Positions 8,704 to 51,586 of a stretch of 64,000 nt of DNA are shown piece by piece (positions within the stretch are counted from its first letter, which is position 1; each line of letters opens with the position of its first letter). The notes beneath the pieces were generated by a model. It did not search any database and had not been told where the DNA came from. It saw nothing but the letters and a program-made list of their open reading frames with translations. A program made the translations under genes and the position numbers. Origin of the DNA: an uncultured Spirochaetota bacterium (GTDB lineage: Bacteria > Spirochaetota > Spirochaetia > SZUA-6 > Fen-1364); the NCBI GenBank assembly GCA_963781885.1, contig CAWAHW010000004.1, forward strand, positions 704,001-768,000. The letters are read 5' to 3'.

Positions 8704-8785
8704 TCCAGATCGCCACCCGAAAACGGGCGCGTTCTCAACTCACTATGAGATGGATTGTGAGATAAATCCATCGGAAGGGAGTGGG

Positions 8786-29600: not shown

Positions 29601-31481
29601 GACTTCTCTTGTCCGCAATCCCTTCGGCGATCCGAATGTATCTGACAAAGGAAAGCTATCGCTAACAAAGTCGACGGTGAACAGCGAGCTCAAACATGAA
29701 ATATGGCGTTCCGCTCGAAGGCGGGCTGTTGGCTACGTTGATCCAGCGCCACTCTTCTCTCGGCAGGGAGGCGGCGATGTGAACAGCTACAAGCTGTTCG
29801 TTGAGCACGCCTTCCTTCACCTGCGATCTGGCGGACGAATGGGTTACATCACCCCCAGGCGGGCATATACGCAGACTCAGGGTCGGACGAGCTGCGGGAG
29901 ATGCTTCTCAAGCGCGGATATTGGGACTGGCTCTTCGGTTTCGAGAATCGCGACAAGATCTTCCGACATTCATCGTCGCTTCAAGTTCTGTGCTTTCATA
30001 ACGGGCAAAGGGGAGACAACCGAATCCGTTCGCGTCTCTTTCATGAACCGCGCCCTCGAAGCTTGGGACACTGGGGCATCAGATCCATGACCGTGGCCCA
30101 GGTAAAAGCATTTTCTCCAAAGTCGGGATCCTTCTTGGAATCCGTGGGAAGCGCGACCTCGCGATTTTGGAGAAGATATACGGCAATCCTAACGTAGTTC
30201 TTCTGGGCGAGGAGGCGGACCAAGGATGGGGACTAAAGTATGGCACAGAATACCACATGACGAATGACGCCAAGCTTTTCCGCCTATCGCCAAGTGGGAG
30301 GAGAAAAGCTATCGCAGCGATGAGTATGGACACTGGCTCAAGGGCGATTGGCAAGCTTATACGGGTCCTGACGACAATTTGGGAAGACCCTCTGACCCTT
30401 CTCAACGCGAAGCAGGGACTGTCCTCTCACAGGATAGAAGACACATCCTCAACCTGAATAGCCTCGAAGACGTGGCGTTGCCCCTCTACCAAGGCGTCAT
30501 GATCAACCATTTCGACTTCGCGGTGAAGTCCTACGTATCCGGCGCTGGCAACCGCGCCCAGTGGGCCGAGCAGGCACGGGTCAACGACTCATCCGCCCTC
30601 AGTTCCTTATTGGAATGAGGATGAATGAATACAACTTCGGTCAAGTCAAGGTTGTTTTTAGGGCGATATCGAATGCCACAAATGAAAGAACCATGATTGC
30701 TTGCTCAATCACCGGACTTGCCATTTGGGCATTCGCTATCACGATATACAGTGCAATACGGGAATCCGTTCGCGTTCTCAGGCATGCTTTCTTCTCTTGT
30801 ATTCGACTCACTACTAAGAATCCATTTACTGGCACGAATGTAGAGCCGGTTCTTACTTGATGAAATTCCCGTAATCAAGATGGATATGGCAAAAAGCATT
30901 GGCGAGCTTTCGCAAAAGCTAAGTGCAACCCATATAGCCTTTGCATCTTGGAGCGAGACTCCTCCCTCTGCCTGGCTCACAGATCCGAATCCCGGGCGCA
31001 GGCTCGCGCTGAGCTCGACGCTCGGGTAGCACTCCTTTACGGCCTTGATGAAGATGACCTCTCCTACATTCTCTCAGACTGCGAGCACCCGGCGGACAGC
31101 CTAAGTCAGAAGGCTTTTGCTCGTGGACTCGACCCACGTGGCTTCTGGCGTGTGGACAAAGAGCTGCGGCCAGAAGAGCGTCATACAGTACGGACGCTCA
31201 GAACCTTCGAGGCGATCAAAGAAGATACACATATGGAGACTTCGGTGAAGCGGCACAACAGCATGGCCGCGGACGCTTCCAAAGAGCGTGAACTTGTCCT
31301 TGCGCATCGGAAGCTCATCGCCAGGATCAGGGGATTCGGGCTGAGAGATTTGGTACCGACGGTTCCGAAGGCAACGAAGGTAACGCCGGATCTACCTGCA
31401 AGAAGAGGCAGGGGCTGTTGTTTTGATACCCATAACTTGAGACAGGAGGATTTATGGCATCGCGCTACATTTCTTCGCTAA
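26611..31481 (+). CDS. Large N6-adenine DNA methyltransferase, Eco57I/DrmMI-like (frameshifted)
   Basis: IGILYEGLL, RKGSGTFYTP, DIAMGSGSFL, IYGVDI and GFDAILGNPPW motifs. Confidence 0.85.
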
Positions 31482-33058
31482 ATGATGACGAATACAAGAA
31501 ATTGACGCAAAAGCTGCATGAGATTCAGGCAGGATCCTGCTTTATCTGTCAGAAAGCCATTGATTTGGCTATACATGAAACGAACATTGATCATATTGTT
31601 CCCCTCGCCGCAAAAGGAAAGGATGCAGAAGAGAATTTCGCCCTTGCCCACGATGCCTGCAATAAGTCAAAGCAGGATGCAAATCTCCGCATTGCTCGTG
31701 TGTTGCACCGGCTAAAAGATATTCAGGAGACCGTACAGGCAGAAGAGGGGCGTTCGGCATCTTTGAAAGACGTGCTCGCCGCCTTTGGCGGCGCTAAATA
31801 TGCGTTCAAATACCGGATCGAAGAGGACAGACTTATCTATAGTTTCGGCGATATCGGGGATACCGACATTCGGTCAACTGCTGTTATCGACAAAATTTCC
31901 AACGAAAAGACATGCTTTCTAAACGTGCCACTCGCCTACATTCATCATGATTCTATTATCAATCCGCGCGGCATCAACAGCTCGATATCTTTGCTTGTGA
32001 AAGAGTTTTACAAGGGCAATCCACAGCTTCACCTCACCCTTGCCCGTATGAATGACGGGCAGATTCAGGTCTTCGATGGACAGCACAAAGCAGTAGCCCA
32101 AATTATTCTTGGAAATATGGAACTTCTGCTGCGAGTATTTATTTCACCGGTACTCAATAGACTTACCGAAACCAATACAAACGCGGGAAGCACGCTGAGA
32201 CAGATTGCATTCGATAAGTCGATCATGCGTCAATTGAATAACACGCTCTATTATGAGCGAATCCGTAAGTACCAAACGGATCATGGCCATTCCGAAGATA
32301 CTTTTGATTTTTCAGAATCCCAATTGGTGGAGTATTTTAAAGGCGAAAACGTCAATATCAAGAAATACATCATTGACAGCCTTAAGCATTCCATTACCTA
32401 TTCGAAAGAAAACCACCTTAAAGATTTCATTGATTTTGAGGGCAAAGCTAAGGAGTTGCCTATCTCCTATAGCGCTTTTGAAAAGACCTTTCTTACTACA
32501 TTCATTGATCCGAAACTTATCTTAAGTACAAATATCTCCTATAAAACTGATGAGGGCGCCAATCCTCGCGAGCTTGAAATCACCCAACTCGTGAAATTGA
32601 TGAATATCGTTGCGAACGTGATCTACATCAACAAATTCGATCCAGCCGTCGGTGTCGCACGCATCGAGCAGCGCATCATCGACAAGAAGGATGCTGAAAT
32701 AACTGACGATCATCTCGTCGCGTACCGAGTGAGCAAGGAAGAGATACTGTACAACTGGCTGCAATACCTCAAGAAGGTGATCGAAAGCTATTTTGCCAAT
32801 ATTGGAAAGCTGTTCGATTCAAATCGCCTGTTCCAGCAGCCCTTTCCTGAGCAGCTCTGGAAGAATATCGAAAACTTCATCAAGTCCTTAATTCTGCTTC
32901 CGCTGTGGAAAGATAGGGGCAAGGCAAGCACCTTGTTTTCTGGCAAGAACACGTACGATTTCTGGAGAACAGTATTCGATGTAGCCCGCACGCCGGATGG
33001 TGTTCTGGTGTTGGCGAAGCCCCTCAACTACATTGAGATGATCAAGAACGATGAATGA
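31454..33058 (+). CDS. HNH nuclease fused to a DGQH (ParB/DndB-like) domain
   Basis: CFIC..IDHIVP..N..AH..CNKSK HNH; INPR and FDGQHK motifs; intact, more AT-rich than neighbours. Confidence 0.8.
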   Translation: MASRYISSLNDDEYKKLTQKLHEIQAGSCFICQKAIDLAIHETNIDHIVPLAAKGKDAEENFALAHDACNKSKQDANLRIARVLHRLKDIQETVQAEEGRSASLKDVLAAFGGAKYAFKYRIEEDRLIYSFGDIGDTDIRSTAVIDKISNEKTCFLNVPLAYIHHDSIINPRGINSSISLLVKEFYKGNPQLHLTLARMNDGQIQVFDGQHKAVAQIILGNMELLLRVFISPVLNRLTETNTNAGSTLRQIAFDKSIMRQLNNTLYYERIRKYQTDHGHSEDTFDFSESQLVEYFKGENVNIKKYIIDSLKHSITYSKENHLKDFIDFEGKAKELPISYSAFEKTFLTTFIDPKLILSTNISYKTDEGANPRELEITQLVKLMNIVANVIYINKFDPAVGVARIEQRIIDKKDAEITDDHLVAYRVSKEEILYNWLQYLKKVIESYFANIGKLFDSNRLFQQPFPEQLWKNIENFIKSLILLPLWKDRGKASTLFSGKNTYDFWRTVFDVARTPDGVLVLAKPLNYIEMIKNDE

Positions 33059-33122
33059 TGTGGAAAAATCGTCATGGAGGAGCGGGCTTGAGCGGCCCAT
33101 CACGTCCAAAGAGGAGTCGTAA

Positions 33123-36100
33123 TTGATTAATCCCATCTCATTCACAGAAGAAGTCATCTCCGATTTTCTCAAGTATCAGCTTTCTACCTACCGCTTCTCC
33201 GACCCCGACCTTTATGCCCAGATGAGGAAGCTTCTCAACCTTAGCGAGACTCGCGCGTCGCCACTCCTGAAAGGGCCCTATATAAGCCTGTCGCGAGTGT
33301 TCCGACAGGGAGCCACGCTTGACCAGCTCGCAGCGGGAGGAATTCTGCATCCTGGTATTTCAACTATATCCTCCTACCCGCGTACGTATGCTCACCAAGA
33401 GAGGGCGATCCGCGCGATTACTTCTGGTAAACACACAATCGTAGCCACGGGTACTGGCTCGGGAAAGACGGAGTGCTTTCTCTATCCCATCATCAGTCGA
33501 TGCATGAGGCTCCGGGATGAAGGCGTCCCCCCGGGAATCGTCTCGGTCATTGTGTACCCAATGAACGCGCTTGCGGAAGATCAAAGAGTTCGCCTTCGCG
33601 AGCTTCTCGTTGGCACGGGCGTCAGCTTCGGCATGTATACGGGCCATACGCCGGAGGATCCTGTCGCCACCTCCAAGCGCCTTCCTCCCGGTAGCTCGAG
33701 GGCCGTCTATATAGCTGAGCTTGAAAGAATGCGGCGAGAGAATCCGGAGGGGCTGCTTTATCCTGCCGAGGAGCGGACATCGAGGAGCGAGATGCGCGAT
33801 CCCGTCACGGTTCCGCGCATCCTTCTCACGAACGTCAAACAACTCGAGATCCTGCTTACCCGCGGCAAAGATACGTCCATGTTTACTGATGCCAGACTCG
33901 AGTATCTTGTCTTTGACGAAGCCCATACCTTTACGGGCGCTCTGGGTGCCGAGACCGCGGCCCTTATTCGCCGTCTCAAGACTTTCTGCGGCAAAGGACC
34001 TGAGGATACAGTTTGCATTGCGACTTCCGCAACAATCGCCGACCCTGAGAAAGGCGCGGAGGCGGGGCGCGATTTTGCCGCACGCTTCTTTGGGGTGGGC
34101 CGAAATCTGGTCGAGCTTGTGGGAGAAGAGATATGAATCGGAACACGCGGTATGGTCGGAGACCCTGAGCGAGACGCCATCACCCTCTGATTCCCAAGAA
34201 ATACTCAAAACTATTCTTAAATCCCTCACTGTGCTTGAAGGGCAGGAAAACGAGACGACCGCCTTGATGGCGTTGGGTAGCGCTTGCGCTGCCTTGTTCG
34301 GTCGTTCTGTTGCGTACAAGGAGAACTGGCGTGAAGAACTCTATAGGGATATGGTCCGATTCAGGGTCCCCTATCAGCTCGCGGAGAAAGTAAAGTATCC
34401 CCTAGATATTCGAACCTTGCGGGATTCCTTCAAGCCCATTCGGAAAAGACCTTATTTCTGAAGAGGAGATCCTTTCCTGGTTCGCACTCGGAGCCGCCGC
34501 ACGAAACCAGGGACGCCCTCTGTTCCGACCAGTTGTTCACAACTTTGTGCGCGGCATTGCAGGCGCTCAGGTAACCCTCGATCCAGCGACAAGCAAACCA
34601 ACGTTGTTTTTGTCTGGCGAGGATCGGACAAACGCCGGCGATACCCGTTTCCCTTTCCCCGTAGTTGTCTGCACAACCTGCGGGCAGCACTACTTCAAGC
34701 ACTGGATTGCTGGTCTTGAGCCGCTCCCGGCTGGATTCGGCGGGGGCAACCAGACTGCTCATGGCCAGCATTGGGAGCATGTTCCAAAAGAAGAGGGCAC
34801 GGTGCTGTACCTGTTCGACCGGATTCGGGGGGAAAGTGAGGCCGAATCCGATGAGGAAGAAGAAGAAAGCAGAAGCCATGGCACCACAATCAGGTCGGTT
34901 CCGCTGTACGTATGTTCGGAGTGTGGTCTCCTCTCTGATCATGAACCAGATACTTGTCCGAGCTGTGCCCGTTCGGGATGTTTCGCCCGAGTAAACGCGG
35001 TTCTTCAAAAGGATAACAGTCGGGGAAGCTTCCATCGCTGCGTCTGCTGCGGGAAACGGGGCAACTCCCTCTCAGGACGGTACAGAGAGCCGGTGAGGGA
35101 AATCAAGGCGATCACCGCGCCGGATATACACATCCTCGCCCAGAGCATGATCCAGAATCTCGAACGGCGACGGCTGCTCGTATTTGCTGATAATAGGCAG
35201 GACGCCGCCTTCCAGGCGGGGTGGATGAAAGATCATTCACGTCGCTATCGTTTCCTCAACCTCACCCAAGCTGAGCTGAAAAAGGGGCATGCGGCCCTTG
35301 GCGATATCGTCCATGATTTGGATAATCTTTTTGATCGGGACAAGAAACTCTCATTCTCGCTACTTCGCGAGGTATGGGAATATGCTCCTTTCAATGACTC
35401 ACCCAACAATCACCGGAAGGAGAGAAGCACCTATATTCGATTGCAGCTCCTTCGTGAGTTGACTCGTCCCGCGCGCGATGCTCAGGGCCTGGAGGCTTGG
35501 GGGCGACTTTGTGTGCGGTATAAGGGCCTCGATACGGATCAGCTTTGGACGCGTGACTGGGCGTTCGCTCTTCACATTCCACCTGAAGAGCTTATAAACG
35601 ACTGTTCGCTTTTTCTTGATAAGCTCAGGAGAAGCGACCGCTGCGTTTTTGACAAGCCGACGATGCTCTACACGCGCTTTATCGAGCGAGCCGACCCCTT
35701 CGTTCAGAGGGGCTATATCCCCAACATGGACTTGATGCCAAAAGTTGTGAAACTGAGGCATGAGGCAAATGACAAGAAGAACTACACCATTCAGTTGATT
35801 CCCCAGCGCGGTCAGAGCTCGTTCTCACAGATGGCGAAGAAGTGGGGCGTGCCATCCGCGCATTTCAGTGACTTCACTGAGAGCTTCTTTGGTCTACTCA
35901 TTTCGAAGGGTATCCTTGTTCAAACCGATGTCGAAGGCAGAAGGGGCACACCGATCCCGGGGGCCTCAGGCTACCAGATTAATGGGGAATCGCTCGATTC
36001 TCGAGCATGGGGAAAAGGCGTACCGCTGCTCAACCTGCCATCAGATTCATACGCGTGCGTCGACAGGAATGAGATGCGTCGCATGGAACTGCGAAGGATT

Positions 36101-38549
36101 GCTCATTCCTCGCGAGACGGACGCCGATGATTTTGACCTGATGATGCTGGATCGGGAGGTCGCAATTCTCCACCCCGAAGAGCATTCCGCTCAGGTTCCC
36201 GCCAGCGCGCGAGAGAAGCTTGAGCGGGAATTCAAGGACGAGCGCCTCGAGATTCCGAACACCCTAGTCTGCACCCCGACTCTGGAGATGGGCGTTGATA
36301 TTGGGAGTCTTGATTGCATCCTGATGCGCAATATGCCGCCCTTGCCCGCAAACTATTGGCAGCGCGCTGGAAGGGCCGGGAGACGTCACAGGATTGCGGT
36401 TGATATCACCTACGCCCGACCTGCCAGCTTCGATCAAGCTTACTTCAAGGACCCCCTAAAGTTGCTTATGGGGACCATTGATCCGCCGAGTTTTAACCTA
36501 CGGAACGAAAAGCTCATTGAGAAACATGCTCACTCAGCGGTGATAGGATGGTTCCGAAAGACGGCTGAGGATCGAAAGACTTCTGCTGATGGCCGAGCAC
36601 GCAGTACTAGAAACCCTTGTGACATCATTTCCTTCGAGGACTGGCGACTATGTCTTTACGGATGATCACATCGACATGACGCCCCGCGATTTTTCCCCCT
36701 GGCAACCCTTATAGCTGAGCATCGGACGCAGCTCCTCGGAATGCTCGAGCATACATTTACGGATACCTGGCCGCCTGAGGATGCAGAATCCGTCACGGGA
36801 GGGGTTCTTGAATCGGTGCTTGATGCTATGGCTGAGGCGCTCAGCGAAACGGTTCGAAGGCTTCTGGAGCGAGTTGCCTGGGCAAGGCGGGAATTGGATC
36901 GAATCAATAGCGCATTCACAGACACCGCGCTCTTCGATCCCATCGATAAGGTCATCAAGTACCGCCTGGAACGATTCCTTGCTCAATTGCGACCAGGCGC
37001 TAGAAATCAGAGTACCGACTTCATCTCGGAGGATTCATATACCCTTTCCTATCTTGCCCTTGAGGGATTCTTGCCTGGATACGGCCTGGACACAGGCACC
37101 ATCCTTGGAGAGTACTCCTCTAGCGGCGTAGGGTTCTCCCGAGCGTTATCCATCAGGCGAAGTCCAGCAGTCGCACTCAGAGAATTTGCGCCAGGTAACC
37201 TGCTATACGCTTTGGGAAGCAAGTACATCCCAAGGCGTTACCATCTCGGTGATAAGCCGCCTCTCTCTTTCAATTACGACCCGGAGACATCCGCAATCGT
37301 GGAGGAGGGGCAACCCGACAATTCCTTTGCGGCACAGGTTGCCGGGCAGATCTACAGCCTGGAGCTTCAGGACACGGAGATCCTTCACTTCTCGACAATC
37401 AGCGATGAAGAGGATTACCGGTTCTCTATGCCGTCGGAAATACTCGGAATGTCGATGGATTCACATGAAGGAGGCGCTTCGTATCGTTCGGGTATCCGGC
37501 AATTACACCTACTCAAAAACTACCAGTTCCGCCTGGTGAATCTCGGGCCGGGAATGCTGGTTGACGGCTCCGATATTTATGGTTTCCCAATATGTCGTGC
37601 CTGTGGTTACAGCACTTCGCCATATTCTTCCGACGCGGAGAAGAGAGCTTTCTGGGAGAGGCACTTCCAGAAGTGCCAACAGCCGCCTGGCATTCCCTAT
37701 GCACTTCATATCGAGGGCTTGGCCGATGTCCTTCTATGGCCGGGATTCAAAACTCCCCTTGATGCCTATAGCACGGTAGAAGCCATTCGCAAGGGCGCCG
37801 CGGTTGTGCTTGATATGGAAGAAGATGATCTTCAGCTCCTTGCCTTACCGCAAGGAGGCGAGTATACGATGATGTTCTACGATCCGATGCCTGGGGGTTC
37901 AGGACTGCTGAACCAGATAATAGCAAAGTGGGAACTCGTTCTGCGAGCTTCCCTTGTGATCGTAGAGGAATGCCCGAGCCGTTGCGAGACTGCTTGTATC
38001 GATTGTCTGTATTCGTACCGAAACAGCCAATACCATAGGTTCCTCGATAGGAAGAAGGCGGCTGACCAAATAGGGGAAATGCTCCAAGCGGGAAAACTTC
38101 AATTTGAGATGGATATCCCGCAGAAGATACCTCAGGCCAAGGGCGGCGCCCAACCTCTGAACAATCCGGAAGCACGTCTTCGCAAGTTACTCATCAAGGC
38201 TGGCCTACCAGACCCGGAGGCCCAAAAGACCATCACGCTCGGAGGAGGCCTCGGAGCAACAATACCGGATTTCTACTACCATTCGCCGAACGATCAGATC
38301 GAAGGAGTCTGCATCTATCTCGACGGCATGCACGGGTCCATCCATGGAAATGATTTACAGGCCAAACTGGATGCGCGAAAGCGAAGCGGTCTGGAGAGTC
38401 AAGGATACATGGTCGTCGTCATTACATTCACGGAGCTTGCCGATCGAGACTCATTAAGTGGAAAGTTCTACAGGATCGCACGCGCCTTGATCGGAAAAGC
38501 GGAGGCTGATCGCATTCGGAATTCAAAATATTGGTTTGAGCAAGAGTAG
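33123..38549 (+). CDS. Large DEAH helicase with DUF1998 Zn domain and C-terminal Vsr/PD-(D/E)xK-like nuclease, YprA/DrmAB-like (frameshifted)
   Basis: TGTGSGKTE, YPMNALA, FDEAH, TPTLEMGVDIG, QRAGRAGR, YDPMPGGSG..C.C..AC..CL and IPDF..YLDG.H motifs. Confidence 0.88.
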
Positions 38550-39686: not shown

Positions 39687-40233
39687 AGGATCCCTCCAGC
39701 ACAGCAGTTTTCGCCCAACGGGACGACGCAGTCTTCTTGGCGCATAACATGTGGATTGAGTTTTTTTATCATCATCTCTGGCTATTAACCCATTTCGCAC
39801 CACATTCGTGCCTTCCCTAGGGCATTACCTCTGCAATATTGTCCCTTAATTAGTATCATTTTGGCAAGATACCACTATGCTTGGTCGAACTACTTATGTA
39901 TCCGGCTCTGCACTCTTTTACTCTGCGCGACCGTGACTCTGCCTAGATTCTACTGCTTTGTCGATGAATCCTAAAGAGGGAGGGGTTGGGCACAGAGGAC
40001 GATAATAGGCTGCAGGGCAGAGTTCGCATGCAAACAAACCTGCTCGTGGCGGGCCGCAGACGTACGATCTCGGGCTCTGCAGTGTTGGGCATGCCCCCGA
40101 ACAGGTCCTTGACCGCCTTGATACTTCTTGGGATGCATAAGGGCTGGTCTGCATACAAACTTGGGAAGCACTCGGCCAAGACAGCAAATCTACGTGTCGC
40201 AGCGACTATTTTCCATACATATTCCTCCCCCAC

Positions 40234-40683
40234 CTATGGCATGCCGCCTTCCGACTGCGGCACGTCCGGACTCTGCGGCGTCCAGTCCGCCGCCGCATTT
40301 CCCTGAATCATCCGGTCGTTCTCATCCTTGTACGCCATGATGATAACAGCCCCCACACACTCAGCACCGAAGCTCACATCGCGCTGCTCTTTCGCCTTGA
40401 ACACCTGCCGCAACTGGCCTTTTGTTTCAACAGTCTTATTCGACGCCGCATCAAAATGCTTGCCTCGGACATCCCAGACGGCCGTTACAGAATAACCGTT
40501 TGAGTTGGACCACACTTCCCGCGCGGCCGTATCCGCTCGCACGAGTTTCATTCCGTACAACTCTTTTACGGCCGGGACGTCGCCCGCCGCGGTCGACGTC
40601 GACTGCGCCCGGCCAAGCTGCACAACGCCAAGCAAAAGAACGGCAAACACTGCCGCTGCTATCACACTGACATTTCTCGACAT
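40234..40683 (-). CDS. Secreted hypothetical protein
   Basis: GGGGAG RBS; signal peptide MSRNVSVIAAAVFAVLLLG..AQ. Confidence 0.65.
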   Translation of the reverse strand: MSRNVSVIAAAVFAVLLLGVVQLGRAQSTSTAAGDVPAVKELYGMKLVRADTAAREVWSNSNGYSVTAVWDVRGKHFDAASNKTVETKGQLRQVFKAKEQRDVSFGAECVGAVIIMAYKDENDRMIQGNAAADWTPQSPDVPQSEGGMP

Positions 40684-40766
40684 AACACTCCCCCTGTCGC
40701 AAACAAGTATATCATTCCTCCGGGCCTCCGGTGGAATGAACGTGGGGAGCTCGAGCGGCAACAATC

Positions 40767-41030
40767 TTAGTTCATTCGCGCCCGTCTCTCCCGCTCAACG
40801 ACCGCAGCGGTCTCGAGCTTCTTGAGCCAAATTACGGCTTCGCGCAATCCGACAATGCGTCCGTCACGAAACCGCCGCCGCTCTCGGCTCATCCTGGCCG
40901 GTGTCGCCAGCTGCAGCCGCAGCCATTCTTGCAGGCCTTCAATCGCCGGTGAGTACTCTGACCTCACCTTCGAGCGAGACTCGCTTCCAGAGATCAGCAT
41001 CCGCGTGCGCGCACTTACAGCGTCCTTCAT
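40767..41030 (-). CDS. Small basic hypothetical protein
   Basis: GGAGG RBS before MKDAVS. Confidence 0.45.
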   Translation of the reverse strand: MKDAVSARTRMLISGSESRSKVRSEYSPAIEGLQEWLRLQLATPARMSRERRRFRDGRIVGLREAVIWLKKLETAAVVERERRARMN

Positions 41031-41937
41031 TTCGGGATCCTCCCTGCGAACTAGTACGGCGTATCTGTTCGTTTGACTTGACCCCACCGCTCTCCCGCCA
41101 GGCGCGAGCTCGCGTGCCGATCGAGGACGTCGGCGCGCTCGATCGGGCCAGGGCGAACACAGTACGCACCCCCGCCCACCGCTCCGCTGCCCCCCACGCT
41201 CGGGGTGCGCCCCCAGGACCTCGCGCGGCCGTCCCCTCCCGATCGGCCGCGCCCTCCCCAACACCAAGACCGCACCGATCGGGCTGCAGCCGGTCAGCTG
41301 CCCTGCAGGGGAAACGCGTCCCGCTGACCGCACGGCCTGCCCTGCGGGTGTTCTATGCACCCTCGGTCAGTCCGTGCGGTGGCCATCGGTACACTCGCGC
41401 AGCGGGCCTGACAGCGGCCGCCCGGGTGGCTTCGCCTCGAGGCGGCCACGTTTTCAGGGGGTAGCTGTACAGGGGGGAGGCCCTGAAAACGCGCTGCAGC
41501 CCCGCCACGCGCGTCCCCTGCAGGAGTTTCTTCGAAACAACGCCCGATCGGCGCTCCAGCGTCCCCCTTCCCCCTCCGCGGGGGAGACATTCGCCGCGTG
41601 GACGCGCGAGGGCTCCGCGCGCTCCGCGTTCTTGCTCCGCAGCTGGGATCCACCCCCACCACCACCCTCCCGCCGCCCCCTCGCAGGGGTGCTCCACGGA
41701 AAAGAGGATCCCGGATCCACGATCACAGCTGGCCAGCCGGCTTCACCAGGTTCGGGGGATCCCCGGGCGAGATCTCCAGGACCAAGAGGGCGGGTGAAGG
41801 GGTGATCGCGCGGAGGTCTCCCATCGGAGCGGAAGACCGACGATGCGCGGGTGTTCGACGTTCGACGACCGAGAAAGAGGCGGGTGATGCCCTTCGGGCA
41901 TGAAGAAAATATTAACACAACTTTTACAATTCCCTAC

Positions 41938-41966
41938 TTGACATATTGCCGACCGTGGTCTATATT
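41938..41966 (+). promoter_or_regulatory. Sigma70 promoter
   Basis: TTGACA-N17-TATATT upstream of the sigma-like gene. Confidence 0.7.
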
Positions 41967-41987
41967 TATGACACGGAGGATGCAAGA

Positions 41988-42776
41988 ATGAACAACGAAG
42001 AAAGGGAACAGACAGAACGGTGCGGCATGACTTTTGAGCAGGCTGGATTGCAGACCTACCAGTACGGCCTTCGCAAGAGTCGCGGCGACACCGACAAGGC
42101 GGCTGACTTTTACCTTCGCATGGTGCCGATGATTCGCCGAATGTTTGACCGCTACATCGACAAGGGCGCCCCTTTTAGCTCGTACTTGTTTCGTACTTTG
42201 AAATGGCAGTGGTATAGCTTTGTCACGGAGACGGCTATGCGGCAGAATCAAATAGCCGTTGCAGACACCGCAGAAGCGTCGCACAACACGCCGCCCCACG
42301 AGATTGCCGAAGCCGTCCAGCCCCGCATTGATTTGAAAAAGACCGGCGCAACGGAACGGCGTGGCCTGTTCTACCTTGCTCTGTCACTTCCTGAAATCGA
42401 CAGCGACAAACTCGCCGAGATTTCCCGGGTGTCTGGCGTACCGGTCAAAGAGATAGTGTCCCATGCGGACGCACTCACGAAGGACTACGCTCGTGCAGAT
42501 CGTTTCCGCGCACGCAGAGACAAGGCTTTCGCACGGCTTCTCGCGATTGACTACCGCATTGCCGACGAAGTTGACCCCGAAAAAAAGGCGCGGCTGGCGA
42601 AGGAGCGCGACGCGATAAGGCGCAGACTGCACAAGGCGAATGAACGGCTTGCCAAAACCAAGACCGCCCCAACTCACGCGGAGATAGCGCAGGAAGTGGG
42701 CGTTCCGAAAGGCACCGTTGACAGTAGCGTTTTCTGGCTCTTGCGCTCCCGCACGAAGCAGGACGCAGAGAAATGA
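41988..42776 (+). CDS. Sigma-70/ECF-like protein
   Basis: Region-2-like FSSYLFRTLKW; C-terminal HTH THAEIAQEVGVPKGTVDS. Confidence 0.7.
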   Translation: MNNEEREQTERCGMTFEQAGLQTYQYGLRKSRGDTDKAADFYLRMVPMIRRMFDRYIDKGAPFSSYLFRTLKWQWYSFVTETAMRQNQIAVADTAEASHNTPPHEIAEAVQPRIDLKKTGATERRGLFYLALSLPEIDSDKLAEISRVSGVPVKEIVSHADALTKDYARADRFRARRDKAFARLLAIDYRIADEVDPEKKARLAKERDAIRRRLHKANERLAKTKTAPTHAEIAQEVGVPKGTVDSSVFWLLRSRTKQDAEK

Positions 42777-42991
42777 AGAAACAGGAGGACTTTATAGCGA
42801 CCGTCTGTGAGGCGGTCGCTATGGTTGAGCCGCAGACGGAACGAGCCGAGCTTTGGTTGACACAGCACTTTCGTCCCGAAGAATTGCACATTGGCTTTTT
42901 GTTCATCGAGCAGAGCCGACTATCCGAACTTGTGCAGTCAATCCTTGCCGCCGAGCTTTCCGTATTCCTCCTTCGGCATCGCCCGTCTTGA
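42773..42991 (+). CDS. Hypothetical protein
   Basis: ATGA overlap with the sigma-like gene. Confidence 0.45.
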   Translation: MKKQEDFIATVCEAVAMVEPQTERAELWLTQHFRPEELHIGFLFIEQSRLSELVQSILAAELSVFLLRHRPS

Positions 42992-43329
42992 CCAAGGCTT
43001 AGTCGAAACAGAACTCCTCCGTGCCCGGGCGCGAGCTGCCGCTCGGCCCTGGTTGTCCACAATCGCGGCTCGGGTGTTTGGGCACCCTCGCGAAAACCGC
43101 TCATGATGGACAACCAGCCCGAGCTCGCGGGCCGATCGAGGATGTCGGCGAGCTCGCCATGCGGACCCTGGCAGTCGCGCTCGAAAATCTCGACGACAAT
43201 CGCGCACAACAGCTCGTCCTAAGTTATTGCAATACCGCTGCCCGACTGCGGGCCAGGCGTTCAGACGAATCGAAAGAACAATTGCCATAATCAGCACCAC
43301 GGTCTATTATTCTGTAAAGGAGACGCTGT

Positions 43330-43530
43330 ATGGCAACCGTGATACTACTTCTCATCATCGCCGTTGTCCTGGCAGTCCGTATTCTGCGCTTTCTACTGAG
43401 AGCTCGTCTGCTCTTGTCGGTTGCTTCCGCGCGGCACCTTCGAAAAACCTTCCGATTTTTCTACGGCGTTCGACGGACGGTCAAATGGAGAAACACAATA
43501 CGCACTTTCAGTGCGGAGGGCACTGTATGA
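43330..43530 (+). CDS. Small membrane protein
   Basis: AAGGAG RBS; hydrophobic N-terminus. Confidence 0.5.
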   Translation: MATVILLLIIAVVLAVRILRFLLRARLLLSVASARHLRKTFRFFYGVRRTVKWRNTIRTFSAEGTV

Positions 43531-43853
43531 TGATTACCAGTCCGCAACTCGCCGATAGACTCGGCAAGTCGCGCAAAACCGTCGCGATGTACTGCCAGAA
43601 ACTCGGCATACCAAAGCTCGGAAGCATCTATGCAATGACGGAAGCGCAGGCCGCCCAGGTTGAGGCAGTCATGCATGAGCGGTCGGGCCGACCGCCTGGT
43701 CCGCAACCATGGATAGCCGAAGGCATTACACGTCAAGCCTGGCACTGGCGACAGAAGAAGCGTGAGCAGCCGCCAGAGGAAGCCACTACGAACCCCAAGA
43801 AAGGAAAAACGGCCACGGCCCCGCAGAAGAAGATCCTGAAACGCAAGAAGTAA
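43527..43853 (+). CDS. Small HTH DNA-binding protein (excisionase-like)
   Basis: TSPQLADRLGKSRKTVAMYC HTH, GRP hook, basic tail. Confidence 0.6.
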   Translation: MMITSPQLADRLGKSRKTVAMYCQKLGIPKLGSIYAMTEAQAAQVEAVMHERSGRPPGPQPWIAEGITRQAWHWRQKKREQPPEEATTNPKKGKTATAPQKKILKRKK

Positions 43854-43937
43854 ATGCTAGGCCTTTTGGGAACGCAATCTGACGAGTCTTGCATAATCCG
43901 ATAGTCGCCTGCGGCCACCTATGGCGCCTTCAAAGAT

Positions 43938-43965
43938 CAAAAAGTATCGCCGGCGATACTTTTTG
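43938..43965. promoter_or_regulatory. Perfect 28-bp palindrome, parS candidate 1
   Basis: CAAAAAGTATCGCCGGCGATACTTTTTG; core repeated at 44194 and 51563. Confidence 0.65.
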
Positions 43966-44193
43966 TCCGGGTCTGAGGGACGTGTAGGACAAGATAAAGG
44001 GTGTAAACGATTTTTCCTAATTCCTTTCTATATATAGAATTGAACTGTTAGCAGACTTTGTTTGTGTTAACAAAGTTTCGCTAAACCTTTACATCATAAT
44101 GAATTGGCTGTTAACACTTGCTTTCTTGTTGTCCGCTCGCTTTCACATCGCTCTATCGATGCTCTTGCTCAAGTTGGAACACCGCCTGGTCGA

Positions 44194-44211
44194 AGTATCG
44201 CCGGCGATACT
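44194..44211. promoter_or_regulatory. Palindrome, parS candidate 2
   Basis: AGTATCGCCGGCGATACT. Confidence 0.65.
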
Positions 44212-44357
44212 CGTTTACGGAAACTCCATCCTGCTCATAGTCGGAAGGAGTTAGGTGATCGGCCCGCAACGGCCCTCCGACAAGCGGACCCGCGTGTTTC
44301 ATAATCATAAGTTGTGCAACAGTCGTAAACCGACGGGTTGACAGGAGGGTGGCCAGG

Positions 44358-45384
44358 ATGACGGAGCAACGTGCCGGCAGGGCCTCCGCGCGAGACTCAC
44401 CTCGAGCGCCGCGTCGCCCAGCTCGCCGGGAGATGCCCGAGATTGCGGACCTCACGCCGGCCAGGTCGACAAGATCGCACAGGGCGTCGTCGTGGACGAG
44501 CTGAAGGCCGAGATGCGGCGGGCGATCGTCGCCGAGCGTGTTGACTGGCAGGCGGAGCGGGAAGCGTTCCTCAGCGATGCCAAGAGCACGCACACGCCGG
44601 AGGCCTACGGCGGGCCCTGGATCACCTCGGCACATGGCTCGAGCTGCACAACCTCCCGGCGGCGAACCTCACACCGCGCCTGGCCGACGATTTCATCCGG
44701 GACATGCGCGCAATGAGTGGAAGGACGCGGACAGCACGCGCCTGGTCGTGTCGGCCTGCAGCTCTTCTTCACATTCCTCGAGCGCCGCTTCGATGAGATC
44801 CGCAATCCCTTCCGGGATCCCGAGCTCGGCCGCGTCGACATGGACCGAGGCGGTGATCCCGACCGCCCGGAGCTGAGGTCCTGGCAGGCGGAGCCCGCCC
44901 TCGCCGCGGCCCTGGCGGTGGCCATCGAAACGGGGCTCCGCGTCGGAGGCCTCCCGGGGCTCAACGTACGGGAGGACGGGACCTGGCACACTGTCTCGAA
45001 GGCGCACCGCCTTCAGTCCGCGGAGCCGCTCTCTGCAGACGTCTGCAGCGCCTTTAGAGTCGCGCGGCTGGATCCCCGCCGGCCGTTTGACCCGGAGAGC
45101 TTCCCGCGAGGACCTGGACGGGTGGACGGAGAGACAAAGGGCAGCCCGGAGCGAGCTCCTCATCGCGTGGCTGAAGACGCGGCTCGCGCGGCTCTGCGCG
45201 CAGCTCCATGACGAGAGGGAAGATCTCCGCGGTCTACTCATGGCACGACCTTCGCCATGCGTTCGCCGAGCGGAACGCCGGCCGCGGCCTGGTGTGGCTG
45301 CGGGACCGGCTCGGGCACTCCAGCGTGAGCGTGACGGAGCGCTATCTGCGGAACGTGTTGAACGTGGACACGGGGAAGATGTAG
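44358..45384 (+). CDS. Second tyrosine recombinase (multiple frameshifts)
   Basis: ETGLRVG, YSWHDLRHAFA and LGHSSVSVTERYL motifs. Confidence 0.8.
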
Positions 45385-45395
45385 CCAGGGCCGCT

Positions 45396-47496
45396 TCAAT
45401 TCCGACCGTTGTCGGGTCGCCAGCCTTCCAGATACTTATCCACCAAAGCAAGGAGTGTAGTATCGTTCGGCTGGCTGATGGCCTTGAGGCGATCCAGTCT
45501 ACATCTGAAATTTTCCAAACTGCCGAACAGGAGCGATCATGGGATCCCACTGGAGCTGTTTGCGAGCGCGGATAGTCCGGCTGTTGGCCCCCTGACTCCG
45601 AGTTTCGCTGACCGCCGATCGCAAGATGGCGAGAGTGAGTTGCGGCGAATCTGGAATCTCGAATGGAGGCTGGCTACCTTCAGACCCTTCTCGCGCAAAA
45701 TGCAGCAAGCGGAAGAGATCCCATTCCGCCGCCAGAGCCTCGGCGGTTGCGCCTCGAATCTCTGCGCGGAGGCCGCGCTCGAGGTCCAGTGCAGCTGCTT
45801 CGGATATGAGCTTGTGCCCCGTCCCGTCACGGTGGCCCACCATGCCGATCAGGTCCAGTTTCCCGGATAAAGCCGCGACCTCTGGCAGTATCTTCCGAAC
45901 CGAGGCTTCAATTGCTTCAGCAGCTCCGGCCGGACCGCACGAGTCGATAGACTACTCGCCCAACAATAAAACGAGAATCGAACTCGAACATTCCAAGGGG
46001 ACGCTGCGGGATGGCAGGGATGATGTTCAAGAGAGCAATCGCTCCGGGTTCAACGTGCTCGAGTCGAAAGTTGTCCTGGAAGGTCTCCAAAGACGCGATC
46101 ACATCCTGCAGGCGCTCCGGGGTCGAGCGAGCGCAAATATTTATCGAATGCGGCCCTTGTCAGCCATCGTGCCAAATGCCTTGCCGGAATCATAGAAAGA
46201 CAAGAGGGATTCGCCAGGAATCCGTTCAATGTAGAGTCCGAAGATTTCTTCGTTTGCGACTCTGCGCGATTGGAGCCACCGGGCGCGGAACTCGCCACCG
46301 TAGTGGATCGCTCCGATATGCCGGTCCGCAGCAAGGAATACTCGATGGATCAGCGAACGAACGACGTATCCCTTATCCCCAGCTTTCTCGATGAGGTAGT
46401 TGATAGACGTCTTTAGGTGCTTTGGATCAGACATGTCTCCGTATCCCCCCCAAGTCGTTGTGAGAGCTTCCGTTGTCGCATGAAGCAGTCCGAACACGTC
46501 CGGCAAGAAAAGACGGATCGCCTCAAGAGCCATTACGTCAGCGAGCTCGATTTGCCCTTCGAGGGCCACCACCGCGCCCTTGACCGCCGCAGCATACTTT
46601 CGAACGTCGCGCATATTCCTTATGAGCGGTTGCACTATCTCCGTGAAGATGTCCGGCCAGAGCGCTTCGTTAAATGGCTCCATTTTTTGACCCGAAAGTG
46701 CGTTGTCTATCGCCGCGAGAGTCTGGCGCTGCAGGACTGCCGGCGGAATAGCGGGAAGGTCAAGCGATAGCTGCAGTATTTTCTCCAGATAGTCACGGCC
46801 TGGGACTCCTTCTTCGGTGAGCGCGATCTCAACCCGCTTCCGATCAAAGGCAACGATGTAGATAACGTTCGGAAAGTTTGCGGTCAACCTGATCAGCCTA
46901 AAGATGTCTCGGAGCTCAGAGGTAGACAAACGGTCGATATCATCCAGAACGACGACAATCGGACGGTTGAGCTTGAGCAGGCTTCTTCTCAAGTCTCGTT
47001 CTTTGGTTTGCGACGCCAGTCGTCATCCGTCCGAAGATCTTGCTTGCCAACTTCACCAAGGCTCCGAGGATGCCGGTCCACGGACCGGCAGGCGAGAGCG
47101 CCTCAACACCTGTGAAGATCTCGCCGTATTCCGCAATTTCCCGAGCGATCGCCTTGAAGCCGGGACGCAGCCGGAGTTGGGTCGTGAGCTCGTTGAAGAA
47201 TGAATCCATAAGCTGTTCCGTGCCGCTGAACATCCACGGATTGAAATCGAGAACAAGTATCCCAGAAGCGTCCAGCTCAATGCGGGCCAAGTTGATGAAA
47301 GAGGTTTTCCGGACCCCCAACTGCCAAGCACTCCGACCACTGCACCCTCATTTGCATCCATGGAAGCGATTTGGCGAGCGAATCGCCGGGCAGAATGAGC
47401 TCTGCCCAGCGCATCATCCTGGAGCCGCCGAATTGGGTTGTCATTCGGAACGATCTTAGCGTCTGTGTTCTTGGGATCCTTGTGAAGGTCGTTCAT
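45396..47496 (-). CDS. KAP-family P-loop NTPase (frameshifted)
   Basis: DNPI..DALGR, GSWGSGKTS, FNPW, VVVLDDIDRL, YLEKILQ and NMRDVRK motifs. Confidence 0.88.
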
Positions 47497-47661
47497 AGCT
47501 TGCTCTCCGCTCCAACTTATTGTGATCCACACTGAAATAAGGCAGACGGCTCCAGTTCAGAGGGGTCGAATCATTTTTCTTCTTTCGAACGAATTCGTCC
47601 CCGACGAGCACACCCTATACCCGGTGAGAGTTTGGTACAAGGGAAAAGCCCCGTCGTCCAG

Positions 47662-47766
47662 CGGCACGCCTTCGCAAAGCAAAACGCCGAGGCGCGGCCT
47701 GATATGGCTACGAGACCGTCTCGGGCATTTCCAGTGTCAGCGTGACGGAGCGCTATCTGCGGGAAT
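47662..47766 (+). pseudogene. Orphan 3' fragment of a tyrosine recombinase, homologous to about 45253-45355
   Basis: Encodes RHAFAKQNA..RGLIWLRDRLGH.SVSVTERYL versus RHAFAERNAGRGLVWLRDRLGHSSVSVTERYL. Confidence 0.85.
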
Positions 47767-47880
47767 TTTCCTAGGGCCCGCGGCGGACCGGCGCCCCCGC
47801 ACGGGTCGTGTGTCATAGGATGAGCTGGTCAGCGCGGGGCTGGAGGCGGGGATCCTGGCGTGCTCAGCGGGAACGATAGC

Positions 47881-49097
47881 TCAGACTAACCATTCCGCGT
47901 CTTGAATTACGGCCACATGATCGCCCTGCGCCCACCAATGCATGACTTTCATGTGCCTATCCTGAGAAATGACCAATGCGACACAATCCCGGTTCTGAGC
48001 GACGAACCGAGCGGCTGACTGGTGCCGTGTCCCGCCAACCTCAGATATCGGACTCAGCTCCGCATTCTGTTCGGCAGGAAGCGAACGAAAGATGCAAACG
48101 CTTTTCGCAACGTCCGCTTCAGTGGCTATTTTCGCTCCAAAGCCCAAGACTCCTAAATCCTTAGTAATCACAAGAGCGCCATCTACCCGTGCCAGTGATG
48201 CAACGCGACGGATTTCTGTCGGCAAGTTCCAAGCATCAACGGTGAGCGCACTCGAGAAGAATATTCTTGCTTCGTCGGTGATCCCCGCTTTTTTCAATTC
48301 TTCGAGCATCTTTCCGCCAGAAAATTGTCGCGTAAGGTTCTGCCTAATTGCGTCGTGTAGCGACAGATCAGGTGTTGCGAATCGATGAACAAATGGATTT
48401 AAGGACTCCGACCACGCGTCAGCTTCCCCAGGAACGATCAGGACGGTCCCGCCGTGCCCATCGCCGAGGATCAGCCTTCCAAGCTCTGCAAGGGTGTGGC
48501 TTTCTTGGCCTACTGCCTGAGTTTCAAGCATGTTATCAGGGGGAAACTGCTTCTTTAGAAGATTCAGCAGTATCACTTGTAGGTCGATACCCGTTCCTTC
48601 GACTATTGACATTGAATCTCGTTTGAAAACTGCGAACGTCTTGTAGGGGCCAAGTCCAACGCGCACTGTTCCAGGATCGGGCACCTCGAGAAGGACGCCG
48701 TCCGTCTGCATGCCCCCGCGTCTGCCGAATCCCCAAATCCTTAGTTCTTCAAGCGATCCATCAACGAGCAGGCAGCCTCCTGGAGGGGCGGCTGGGGCAA
48801 GCCTTTCGATTTGCGCCGCATCGTACGGCACCATCTGACCAAAGGCTATTGCACCAAGCACTTTCCCGGGATCCGCGACCGCGACAGAGAACGGGTCGGC
48901 CGCCCTTCATCAAAACTCAGGCCAGCCCAGAAAGCCGTGACGATGAGATCTGTAATCTGTTTCTTGCTGAGGAGTCTTCCCGAGCCAATAGGCGGGGGCG
49001 AGATCTTCACAAGATGGGCGTGTTGAGCGTGAAGCTTGTCGATACATTCGCCGCGGACTTCAAAGCCAAGAAACTGGTAGCCTTCTTTCACTTTCAT
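47881..49097 (-). CDS. Diadenylate-cyclase-like (DisA_N/DAC) protein with N-terminal DACNV-like sensor (frameshift near 48870)
   Basis: GHGGTVLIV, VDGALV and GTRHQSAA..VISQD DAC motifs; AFWAGL..DEGR N-terminal motif. Confidence 0.8.
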
Positions 49098-49788
49098 TGC
49101 CAGTATCCTACTCCTCACACAATCGCCGCCCGAGTATGCGATTCCCGATTGAGGTTTTTCGAGCTTCGAAATCCTTTCCGCCGAGATTCCCGTCCTGCCA
49201 GTCTCGATAGAGATCCCGAATGTCGTTGATGAGATCTGTGTACCGATTGGCCATCGTGGCGACTACCCCGCCTATCACATCTCCGGAGGAGAGCCGGAAG
49301 ATTCGCCACAATACCGATCTTTTCGAGTGCCCAATCACAGAAATGGATTCTCTGCCATTCCGAACAAGTGCACTGAAGCTTGATCGGTTGAACAGCAGCA
49401 ACAAACTTATGCTTTCCATCCGGACTTCCGAATATACAGCTGACTGCCATTCTTGCTCCCCTTTTCTTGGAAAAATGAGATGATTTCTGAGAAGAACTAC
49501 CCGTTTCCCTATCTTTTTTGACATAACCTTAAATACTCTGTTACGGCAAGTCTATATGAATAGTAGATTTGGGTACATCGGAGTATGCGAGTGGGGAATC
49601 GAAAACGGCCCTAAAATTCTCGCGTGATGATTCTCAGCGACCCAGCGGAAAGTTGCCGAGGCAGTCGCGACCACAATGAGCGACAAGGGGCTCGAAGTCA
49701 AACTCCAGCATAAACGGAATGTGCGTACACTCGCCTTGTAGAGCATGCTTGAGTTCGGAATGCGCTACATGTTCCATGGAGACAGCAA

Positions 49789-50088: not shown

Positions 50089-50236
50089 GGGAGGTCAATC
50101 TACTACGATTGAGATCAGCCGATCAACAACCCGCTGATCAACGCAGGTTCCTCCTCCATAAAATAGACTTGTCCCCCAACAATTATTTATTGTCAATTGC
50201 TTGATATTTAGCTTTCTACGTGATCTCTCTATTCGT

Positions 50237-51530
50237 ATGAGACACTTCTCTTTCAGGACAGCCGATTCCTTCGAACCCTCACTGCCAGCGGTGCGTCGCC
50301 CGAGAAAAGATTCTGGGGCGAGTCTGTACCGACTGTTCAGGCAGATCAACAGAGGCTTCGGACGTCACTCCGGCGGCGCCTCAGGTTCATCCAAATCGGA
50401 CAGCGACCGGCGGCAGCGGTGCATCGTCAAGGTAAGATATAGTCTCGGTGCAGGCTCTTTGCGAGCGCACCTCTCATACATCCAACGGAAGGGCTCGGGG
50501 AAGGATGGAGAGAAACCCGAACTATTCGGCAGCTCAGAGAAGTCCGAGCTGACCTCTGGCGAGGTGGGTAATCTGCGTCACTACCGCCTTGTGATCTCCC
50601 CTGAGAACGCCGAGGACTTGCCTCTACAGGTGCTTGCAAAGAAGCTCATCCATCGCATCGAGTATGATACAGGATACTCGTCTCTCCTGGGTCGCGGCCA
50701 TTCATGAGAATACCGAGCACGCCCATATTCACCTTGTGATCGGCGGCCAAGACAAGAACGGCCTTGAGGTTTCATTCAGCCGCAAGTACATATCCTCGCA
50801 AATGCGCGAGCACACCCGTAACATCCTTACCGAAGCCCTCGGGGAACGTCGGCCCATCCCCGAAGAGGAGCGCGTAAAGAAAGAGATCAAGGCTAATCGC
50901 TTCACAAGCCTCGATGAAGCAATCCAGATGGCTGCCAGGGCTGGCAGGCTATCGGTGAAGGCATTGCGAGTAGTCACTATGCCCGCAAAAGCTGATGCGG
51001 CCGTCGCCCGACTCAAGTTCCTTGAAGAGGTGGGGCTTGTGCACCGCGAAGGTCGCGATTATCACCTTGCAGCCAACTGGCAAGATTCGCTTGAGGTCTC
51101 GCGTCGGTTCGCGAGCTATCTTGGGGCAGCCAAGCAACTGAAGTTCACACCGCCCAGCCTTTTGCGTCTCTATTCTCCTGAAAAGGATGGCCGTATTGTA
51201 GGGCGGGTCAGCGCCATAGGACGGATCGATGAGCTTTCCAACAATAACTACATCCTTCTTGAGTCCATCGACGGACGAGCGTTCTATGTGCCACTTTTGC
51301 GAAGGCCGCAGGGAATCTCGGTCGGGGATTCAATCGCAATGATGAAATCACTTGAAGCCGGCTCCACCGCGCGCGGAAAACATCGGTCATCACCAAGCGG
51401 CCGACCATCTACAGCTTCAACCTACATGAGCCTTCTGGATGTACGCTATGCAAAACTGCCCGATGAGAAACTCAAGAGCGAGCTTACACGAGTTGGGGAG
51501 AAACGAAGCGGCTTCGGGCTTCAGCTATGA
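50237..51530 (+). CDS. MOBP/VirD2-like relaxase, DUF3363 type (frameshift near 50680)
   Basis: QRCIVK, HLSYIQRKG, RLVISPE and HENTEHAHIH (HUH) motifs. Confidence 0.9.
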
Positions 51531-51562: not shown

Positions 51563-51586
51563 AAAAGTATCGCCGGCGATACTTTT
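51563..51586. promoter_or_regulatory. Palindrome, parS candidate 3
   Basis: AAAAGTATCGCCGGCGATACTTTT. Confidence 0.65.

Follow-up and report, generated by a model that had tools for sequence, protein, structure and literature searches.

A truncated second allele of a Xer-like tyrosine recombinase gene between convergent defence-type genes in a Spirochaetota island: a probable pseudogene relic at a cargo hot spot

Integrons, with their IntI recombinase, attI site and attC cassettes, place a tyrosine recombinase gene beside variable, often small or defence-type genes, and in stacking of the staphylococcal cassette chromosome mec (SCCmec) type at the rlmH 3' end the incoming units carry an end of the target gene and pile up behind the target. 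Passages in two accounts describe the accretion of integrative elements, namely the cis-mobilizable elements (CIMEs), ICEs (integrative and conjugative elements) and IMEs (integrative and mobilizable elements) of streptococci and the tandem ssrA islands of Dehalococcoides (PMC3146451; IME review PMC5704250), and passages in a third present integration by archaeal suicidal integrases of the Sulfolobus spindle-shaped virus (SSV) type as a process that regularly leaves detached integrase pseudogenes behind, N- and C-terminal ones (PMC7253208). A literature search, which was not exhaustive, yielded papers on accretion and none on a recombinase gene that acts as its own attachment site. Such a role had been proposed, in an initial annotation, for the locus at 44358..49097 of the window analysed here, a 64-kb stretch of DNA (G000:C4:704001-768000) from an uncultured Spirochaetota bacterium, where a short copy of the tail of a tyrosine recombinase gene lies between two predicted defence genes. 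We favour a plainer account. The tail copy is probably the relic of a second member of the same Xer-like recombinase family, one that diverged independently and of which an internal C-terminal piece survives as a pseudogene. The locus adds a new example, from an uncharacterized recombinase family, to a known kind of scar and introduces no new principle.

The initial annotation listed a recombinase gene, a convergent KAP NTPase gene ending 11 bp away (the last open KAP frame ends at 45396, 11 nt past the recombinase stop codon), a copy of the recombinase tail and a convergent DAC gene, and all four lie where it placed them:

44358..45384, plus strand: full-length gene for a Xer-like tyrosine recombinase, its frame broken 11 times in the assembly
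45396..47532, minus strand: gene for a PifA-like KAP-family P-loop NTPase of the abortive-infection type, in several frames, convergent with the recombinase gene
47662..47762, plus strand: fragment of a second recombinase-family allele, about codons 302-335 of 344, probably a pseudogene relic
47881..49118, minus strand: gene with a predicted DACNV sensor domain and a predicted DAC (diadenylate-cyclase-like) domain, convergent, with one frame break

The tail copy is the sole other match to the recombinase DNA on the contig (contig positions 751662-751762; 82% identity, E 1.1e-19), and two repeat families, D1 and D2, cover the copy and the gene at 86% and 94% identity, respectively. A 21-nt block, GTGACGGAGCGCTATCTGCGG, which codes for VTERYLR, occurs exactly twice in the window, and two matches were obtained in none of 100 shuffles. 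Of the 33 codons that can be compared between gene and copy (RHAFA...RYLR), 19 are the same, 10 have synonymous changes and 4 encode another residue, so the mostly synonymous character that the initial annotation ascribed to the differences holds. That annotation was also right to see a real second, diverged copy, but the copy is not the gene end for which it was taken: clear similarity ceases at RYLR (47762), the last ~9 codons of the family are absent, and two 1-nt insertions break the frame. The family end, NVLNxDTGKM followed by the stop codon, is kept in all seven other tails of the subgroup (L004, L005, L006, L013, the window gene and the orphan tails L167 and L173). On the other side, weak similarity possibly reaches ~35 nt farther upstream over a 15-nt gap, and the alignment suggests that the HDL codons of the HxxRH motif have been lost from the copy as well. 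The copy is thus cut at both ends and frameshifted. The two insertions are real, since independent short-read contigs show them too. These contigs come from four public runs of one study, each a shallow contig set, among them X1, X2 and X3; X1 record 7 and X2 record 12 span the tail copy with no other letters and a single gap, at 47761, where the extra G of the window is probably an assembly error. The runs gave no sign of joints, circles or deletions at the locus, although sets so shallow cannot establish that such forms are absent.

The origin of the copy is indicated by its distance from other members of the family. It is 77-81% identical to the alleles in loci L004, L006, L011 and L013 and 82% identical to the adjacent gene, and the family alleles differ mutually by ~20%, mainly at silent sites. 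Because the copy is equally distant from the adjacent gene and from the other alleles, it appears to be another allele and not a local duplication, and its mostly synonymous differences can be understood if both alleles diverged as working genes before one of them was truncated. Sequence and six-frame profile searches found no third tail in the window. For purposes of annotation, the tail fragment should be labelled a pseudogene, and many of the other apparent pseudogenes here are to be treated as probable assembly errors.

The full-length gene belongs to a well-conserved family of ~344-aa tyrosine recombinases (P0001-P0014), and a frameshift-tolerant alignment with P0002 gives 295 identities among 334 aligned residues. 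In precomputed Pfam assignments, close homologues (P0001-P0004 and others) carry PF00589 (Phage_integrase) and PF02899 (SAM-like N domain). The window gene is broken up, and for this reason its C-terminal piece reaches 22.9 bits against Phage_integrase and stays under the 27.1 cut-off. The nearest NCBIfam models for the family are XerC, XerA and XerD, with scores far under their cut-offs. The window gene retains the C-terminal catalytic residues HDLRH...LGH...RYLR, which are invariant in the family alignments A2 and A3 and which we take to be the HxxR motif, the second H and the nucleophilic Y of tyrosine recombinases. Of the integron-integrase models, TIGR02249 gives 29 bits for the L027 gene against a cut-off of 265, NF011946 gives 18.9 against 435, and neither is listed for P0002. 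Judged from these profile scores, the locus is not an integron.

Tails were sought around 39 full-length family genes (the window, six metagenome loci and 32 genes from genomes of the same phylum) by a six-frame profile search with the A3 model, supplemented for most of the 39 by blastn and tblastn searches with the gene's own tail. With a threshold of 18 bits, this profile search did not pick up the frameshifted copy of the window, and other broken tails may have escaped it likewise; the metagenome contigs (11 loci) mostly extend only 0.5-2 kb downstream, which is too short for a test of arrays. Clear same-strand family tails lie downstream of three of the 39 genes, those of the window, L027 and L166, and none was found behind the other 36. 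In L027 the first tail, 1.1 kb away, is in frame with a stop codon and shows 71% nucleotide identity, and the second, 1.6 kb away, covers only GQDNAAVTERYLRSLRLK. The L166 tail lies 1.6 kb downstream of a more distant family gene and has its catalytic Tyr changed to Cys. Weaker cases are L135, where a 71-aa end from a different type of integrase lies 1.2 kb downstream, and L177, with a 20.5-bit match 5.6 kb away. The initial annotation had called for homologous loci with variable downstream cargo and repeated tails starting at one codon. The downstream cargo does vary and a gene is followed by same-strand tails in these three loci, but the starts do not coincide. Among 11 tails cut at the 5' side, taken from the window and its relatives, there are 11 different starts, at about residues 190, 205, 245, 253, 255, 278, 285, 300, 302, 316 and 320, scattered over ~130 codons. 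That annotation had itself named random breakpoints as the outcome irreconcilable with its proposal, and the breakpoints vary.

Other forms of damage are equally diverse. Orphan tails without a nearby full gene were found (all 25 genomes of the bacterial family), and seven of them were fetched and read (L167, L169, L171, L172, L173, L174 and L175), which with the four tails behind full genes of the window, L027 and L166 make up the 11; the L170 'tail' was dropped from the orphan count, as it closes a longer frame that encodes an integrase of another type and has phage-like surroundings. The L167 tail lacks the four DLRH codons through a 12-nt deletion, L175 has a stop codon and altered motif residues, and L172 is frameshifted. 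Beyond the tails, an internal deletion is present in G347:C249, middle pieces of the recombinase gene in L183 and L184, and recombinase positions 5-64 only in G783:C32, 33 nt from a conserved 150-nt element described below; several further N-terminal pieces occur, some of which may be cut by contig ends. As these remnants read, the gene family is one that is often broken in many ways and not a site cut at one codon.

Several of these relatives merit a description of their own. The stub of G783:C32 (L157/L187) carries the window-type recombinase to about codon 65, with 83% nucleotide identity to window 44379-44553, and homologues of window 39.5-43.2 kb lie upstream of it; the recombinase module and the 150-nt element are thus neighbours in two genomes, and all between them has been lost in one (G783:C32). 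The L169 orphan (G777:C9, 9095-9226) has a PAS sensor kinase gene of the chromosome on one side and an island with reverse transcriptase and AbiE genes on the other. Together with 244 nt past its stop codon it is 84% identical to the full-gene tail and flank of L176 (G779:C11), and this similarity of tail and flank implies that the conserved unit reaches 244 nt past the stop codon in the L169/L176 subgroup. In L027/L032, a 44-nt repeat of the 3' part of a tRNA-Arg gene, 12.2 kb from the tRNA, bounds a whole island and not sub-units; apart from the family recombinase and the two tails, the 12.2-kb island holds an island integrase, small cargo genes and a Dcm-restriction-Vsr set. A convergent island integrase lies 3-6 kb downstream of the family gene in three loci, and apart from it no conserved neighbour genes of the family were found. 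The genome of the window encodes a second, intact family recombinase of 352 aa (G000:C1:430143-431201, minus strand), with a convergent island integrase 5.6 kb downstream and no tail copy, and this layout of recombinase, cargo and integrase recurs in L027 and L181. Wider searches added little: a first scan of genome contigs with the A2 pattern gave 149 pattern matches, none of them confirmed; a second, with A3, gave one true family locus, L032, among 72 other loci that are generic integrases; a protein-level search of plasmids gave no family match; and one distant match among viral contigs (26% identity) was not used.

A further line of evidence comes from the junction behind the recombinase gene. 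Similarity between the window and its close alleles is confined to 43984-45391, that is, to a ~370-nt leader and the gene, and it ceases at the stop codon in five loci. The cargo downstream of the family gene is different in each homologous locus compared; from translations, we take it to encode a DUF5678-like protein and an aspartyl protease, Vsr, an IS30-like transposase, an RNase H-like protein and a primase-like protein. Copies within a single genome from a different genus are alike over the gene and a further 110-140 nt, after which ~4-10 kb are dissimilar. The three copies in G568 lie within repeats that exceed the fetched 16 kb, and element ends could not be set there. On these comparisons, variable cargo behind the gene is a trait of the family. 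Little can be read from the break at the stop codon where distant alleles are compared, because intergenic DNA is unalignable in any case at ~20% coding divergence. More telling is a contig of X1/X2 that crosses the junction between recombinase and KAP genes. It has six differences from the window in the last 63 nt of the recombinase gene, three of which, at 45366, 45372 and 45381, lie after RYLR, and two over the 165 nt that follow; through the KAP gene and the tail copy, X1/X2 differ from the window by ~1% or less. The switch from allele divergence to cargo divergence between 45381 and 45479 is located at the gene end, outside the catalytic motif. Because the divergent allele extends beyond RYLR as far as its stop codon, this allele and the KAP gene were not joined by a crossover within the motif.

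To account for these findings, recombinase-bearing modules would have arrived more than once at a cargo hot spot, each with neighbouring cargo (the PifA-like KAP NTPase gene; the DACNV-DAC gene), and the older recombinase gene would then have been shortened to a stub between cargo genes, through a deletion or an illegitimate join, an order of events that we infer from the sequence. The modules may have arrived by a site-specific reaction beside the stop codon or by homology-assisted illegitimate recombination. Several observations weigh against so undirected a history. Full genes followed by same-strand tails 1-2.3 kb downstream, found in 3 of the 39 cases, are more orderly than random decay predicts, and the shared order and strand of gene and tail hints at a directed process. 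The tails of the window and L169 start within two codons of each other at HxxRH, and the 12-nt deletion in L167 removes exactly DLRH. In X1/X2, the same KAP gene (~1% different) adjoins a different recombinase allele at the same junction, which fits repeated site-specific joining at the stop codon. A repeat search found no att-type direct repeats, the feature that would prove tandem integration, around the window units or behind stop codons.

Some of these observations recur as support for the proposal of the initial annotation, in which recombinase-less units, each a tail mimic plus a gene, recombine with the recombinase 3' end, regenerate the gene and push older tails and cargo outward. The tails behind full genes in the window, L027 and L166 (with the first L027 tail in frame with a stop codon), the variable cargo, the common beginning of the window and L169 tails at HxxRH codons and the 21-nt identical block shared by the window copies at VTERYLR would all be expected from it. 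The proposal is very unlikely to be correct nonetheless. With tail starts spread over ~130 codons, a decayed copy and an allele-to-cargo switch at the stop codon, recombination of cassettes into the catalytic motif is not supported; the X1/X2 allele runs past RYLR to the stop; the window tail lacks the natural gene end, which the proposal would require as a former gene end; no clear tail follows 36 of the 39 full-length genes; and the recombinase is not an integron integrase (29 bits against 265 for L027 with TIGR02249, no match for P0002). Nor is an integron-like accretion that uses the recombinase gene as its own attachment site supported by tails several of which are inactivated or by the N-terminal and internal fragments that also occur.

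A landing pad at or just behind the stop codon, with whole recombinase-bearing elements integrating beside a resident copy whose gene is later cut, grounding its cargo, is a sharper version of the relic explanation and not a contradiction of it. The end of allele similarity at the stop codon in five loci agrees with it, as do the X1/X2 junction and the two full family genes that lie 8.2 kb apart on one strand in G779:C11. We nevertheless consider it unlikely, as the stop codons of seven tails have no shared motif behind them, no att-like direct repeat flanks the units, and the break at the stop codon carries little weight at ~20% coding divergence; the G779:C11 pair was rejected as evidence of an att site, the two genes being of different subgroups with no shared DNA similarity. 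Still less credible, at an extremely low probability, is behaviour of the SSV type, in which an attachment site inside the recombinase gene causes integration to split the gene and leaves a detached tail at the element edge. The orphan tails of L167 and L175 do stand at the border between chromosomal and foreign gene sets and point inward, but six-frame profile searches found no matching N-terminal part in the whole window or in the 7-10 kb beside these two tails, the split points are not fixed, the full gene of the window lies upstream of its tail, which is the opposite of the order expected, and the tails hold no tRNA-like sequence. Finally, it is enticing to speculate, though we regard this as quite unlikely, that the stretch behind the family stop codon is a directed capture site at which modules with or without a recombinase of their own have been joined repeatedly by the recombinase, older recombinase genes being trimmed to tails. 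If so, the family would anchor a defence-rich cargo array within islands and conjugative elements, in soil Spirochaetota as well as in other bacteria, and would represent a second, integron-independent route to tyrosine-recombinase gene arrays.

The recombinase gene is preceded by a leader with repeated palindromes:

43938..44240, strand not assigned: leader of the recombinase module, with two perfect palindrome copies (inverted repeats I3 and I22)

The palindrome core, AGTATCGCCGGCGATACT, stands at 43943 and 44194, the former within a 28-nt palindrome at 43938-43965 with 11-nt arms and a 6-nt centre, which we take to be a dif/lox-type site layout. The leader from 43984 to 44240 is 78-88% identical in L006, L009, L011 and L013, and the palindrome pair also precedes the gene in L006, L009 and L011, at a spacing of 287-289 nt. 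The core is an 18-nt perfect palindrome that is kept letter for letter across elements whose genes are ~80% alike. It occurs in the window at 43943-43960, 44194-44211 and 51566-51583, at G000:C2:1243990 and 1244259, and in L006, L009, L011 and L169, mostly paired, 250-340 nt apart in the recombinase leader, and once behind a relaxase gene; this third window copy lies at ~51566 (C4:755566). X2 and X3 contigs match the window only over 44180-44213 and differ on either side. The palindrome may be an operator, a bidirectional terminator or a true recombination site, and the pair in the leader could be a real site of recombination or control.

Both cargo genes can be assigned to families. The KAP gene matches Pfam KAP_NTPase at 81.6 bits against a cut-off of 20 and the PADLOC model for PifA (E 2.7e-29 and 1.1e-11), and in this it resembles PifA, the KAP NTPase of F-plasmid abortive infection. 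The DAC frames of the window score 22.9 bits for DAC and 20 bits for DACNV in Pfam, both under the cut-off of 27. The gene has 527 homologues, mostly of ~400 aa with PF21751 and some also with PF02457 (best full-length E 1.6e-143), and full-length homologues with PF21751 reach 69% identity to it. By homology it is clearly a member of the ~400-aa DACNV(+DAC) family and in this resembles the DACNV-DAC proteins; a PDB sequence search gave no match for the DAC frame. Both window genes differ from these described proteins in being split in the assembly, and their defence role is predicted from sequence. Searches of the relatives with the cargo DNA found no homologue of KAP or DAC at the DNA level.

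To the right, the locus directly adjoins a transfer module that begins at ~49.4 kb and encodes a relaxase, a VirD4-type coupling protein, a VirB11-type ATPase, ParA/ParB and ArdC. The features at this border are:

49108..49524, minus strand: open frame of 138 aa, no match in Pfam, PADLOC or NCBIfam
49468..49634, plus strand: conserved non-coding element of ~150 nt at the start of the transfer-module backbone (relaxase, coupling protein)
50201..51530, plus strand: relaxase gene in two frames, Pfam DUF3363 above its cut-off, MobL and Relaxase below theirs

Synteny of this backbone with G779:C28 extends from window 49446 to ~61150 and starts with the 150-nt element, and the recombinase, KAP, tail, DAC and 138-aa frames all fall within the variable stretch ahead of it. 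The element has 70-86% identical copies in seven relatives and elsewhere in G000 (L156-L162, L169:13440-13585 and G000:C2:992400-992537), with more than one copy in some genomes, and no match in Rfam. In five relatives it continues into a hairpin with a GCAA loop, the stem of which varies on both sides (ATCC/GGAT, GCCC/GGGC and others), and then into the T-arm-like GGGTTCGA; in the window and G779 the relaxase module follows instead. The element may act as a structured leader or a small RNA, or it may be an element end.

The wider setting is an integrated island. Chromosomal genes of ~64% G+C (enolase, ribose-5-phosphate isomerase and a SpoIIE-type phosphatase) stop at a tRNA-Arg(CCT) gene (8600-8673), and a gene for a 496-aa integrase (8750-10237) follows, after which a low-G+C island reaches the contig end. 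The tRNA gene and integrase mark the start of an island of at least 96 kb, at which G+C falls from ~64% to ~53%; no repeat of the tRNA-Arg end was found across the remainder of the contig. The island holds other defence-type genes, for GmrSD, an SNF2 helicase, an Eco57I-like methylase and a DEAD-box helicase with an MZB domain. The GmrSD N-terminal domain frame (13779-14684) is directly followed by a DDE transposase gene on the opposite strand (14880-16184), and this restriction gene may have been interrupted by an insertion sequence. Within the low-G+C island, a 5-kb stretch at 40000-45400 rises to as much as 67% G+C, with the recombinase gene at its end, and its open frames have no family match except a weak one to sigma-70 region 4.

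Split genes are common in this assembly and include the recombinase, KAP, DAC, relaxase, methylase and large helicase genes. We regard most frame breaks in the window as probable errors of long-read assembly. The 11 breaks in the recombinase gene (eight missing bases and three extra bases, several in short homopolymers) coexist with 88% residue identity, a combination unlike natural decay, and many other breaks are attributed to the assembly because window letters are absent in short-read contigs, with one letter missing there at each of at least five positions (45385, 45533, 45932, 46983 and 47761), of which 45533, 45932 and 46983 fall in the KAP gene. For the recombinase gene itself this is not proven, as the contigs over 44358-45150 stem from other alleles. 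The same single-base errors probably explain the defence genes that lie in pieces over 23106-38546, among them the SNF2 helicase gene, the Eco57I-like methylase spread over several frames (25754-30087) and the DEAD/Helicase_C/MZB helicase scattered over 33123-38546.

How, then, does the locus compare with the systems named at the outset? It shares with integrons a tyrosine recombinase gene that adjoins variable genes, but it lacks an integron-integrase signature, its repeats are coding relics instead of attC hairpins, and the boundaries of these repeats are not fixed; moreover, its cargo lies downstream of the recombinase gene, with KAP and DAC convergent to it. A general repeat search, not specific for attC, returned only recombinase-coding fragments among the window repeats and no attC cassette borders. 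Stacking with target-gene ends, as in SCC elements, matches the idea of the initial annotation, yet SCC repeats are short, have fixed limits and derive from a host gene, whereas the limits seen here vary and the copy lacks a true gene end. Repeated target 3' ends with the same limits, the hallmark of SCC and tRNA islands, are not what the 11 tails with 11 starts present. Detached integrase pieces recall the SSV-type integrases, for which the passages cited describe a fixed site within the gene and paired N- and C-terminal parts at the element ends, neither of which was found here. Tandem accretion of the CIME type, as far as it is set out in the passages cited, offers the greater likeness, with stacked foreign modules, older ones that lack recombinase function and leftover pieces at their borders. 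Its repeat is an att site, formed by a gene's 3' end (tRNA, tmRNA or host gene) and fixed in its limits, whereas the repeat of the window is a piece of a recombinase gene with variable limits and no att repeats were found around it. The closest known processes are the tandem accretion and decay of integrative elements. If the relic explanation is right, the locus exemplifies the accumulation of defence genes at a conjugative-island hot spot in the course of which the recombinase genes that brought them decay.

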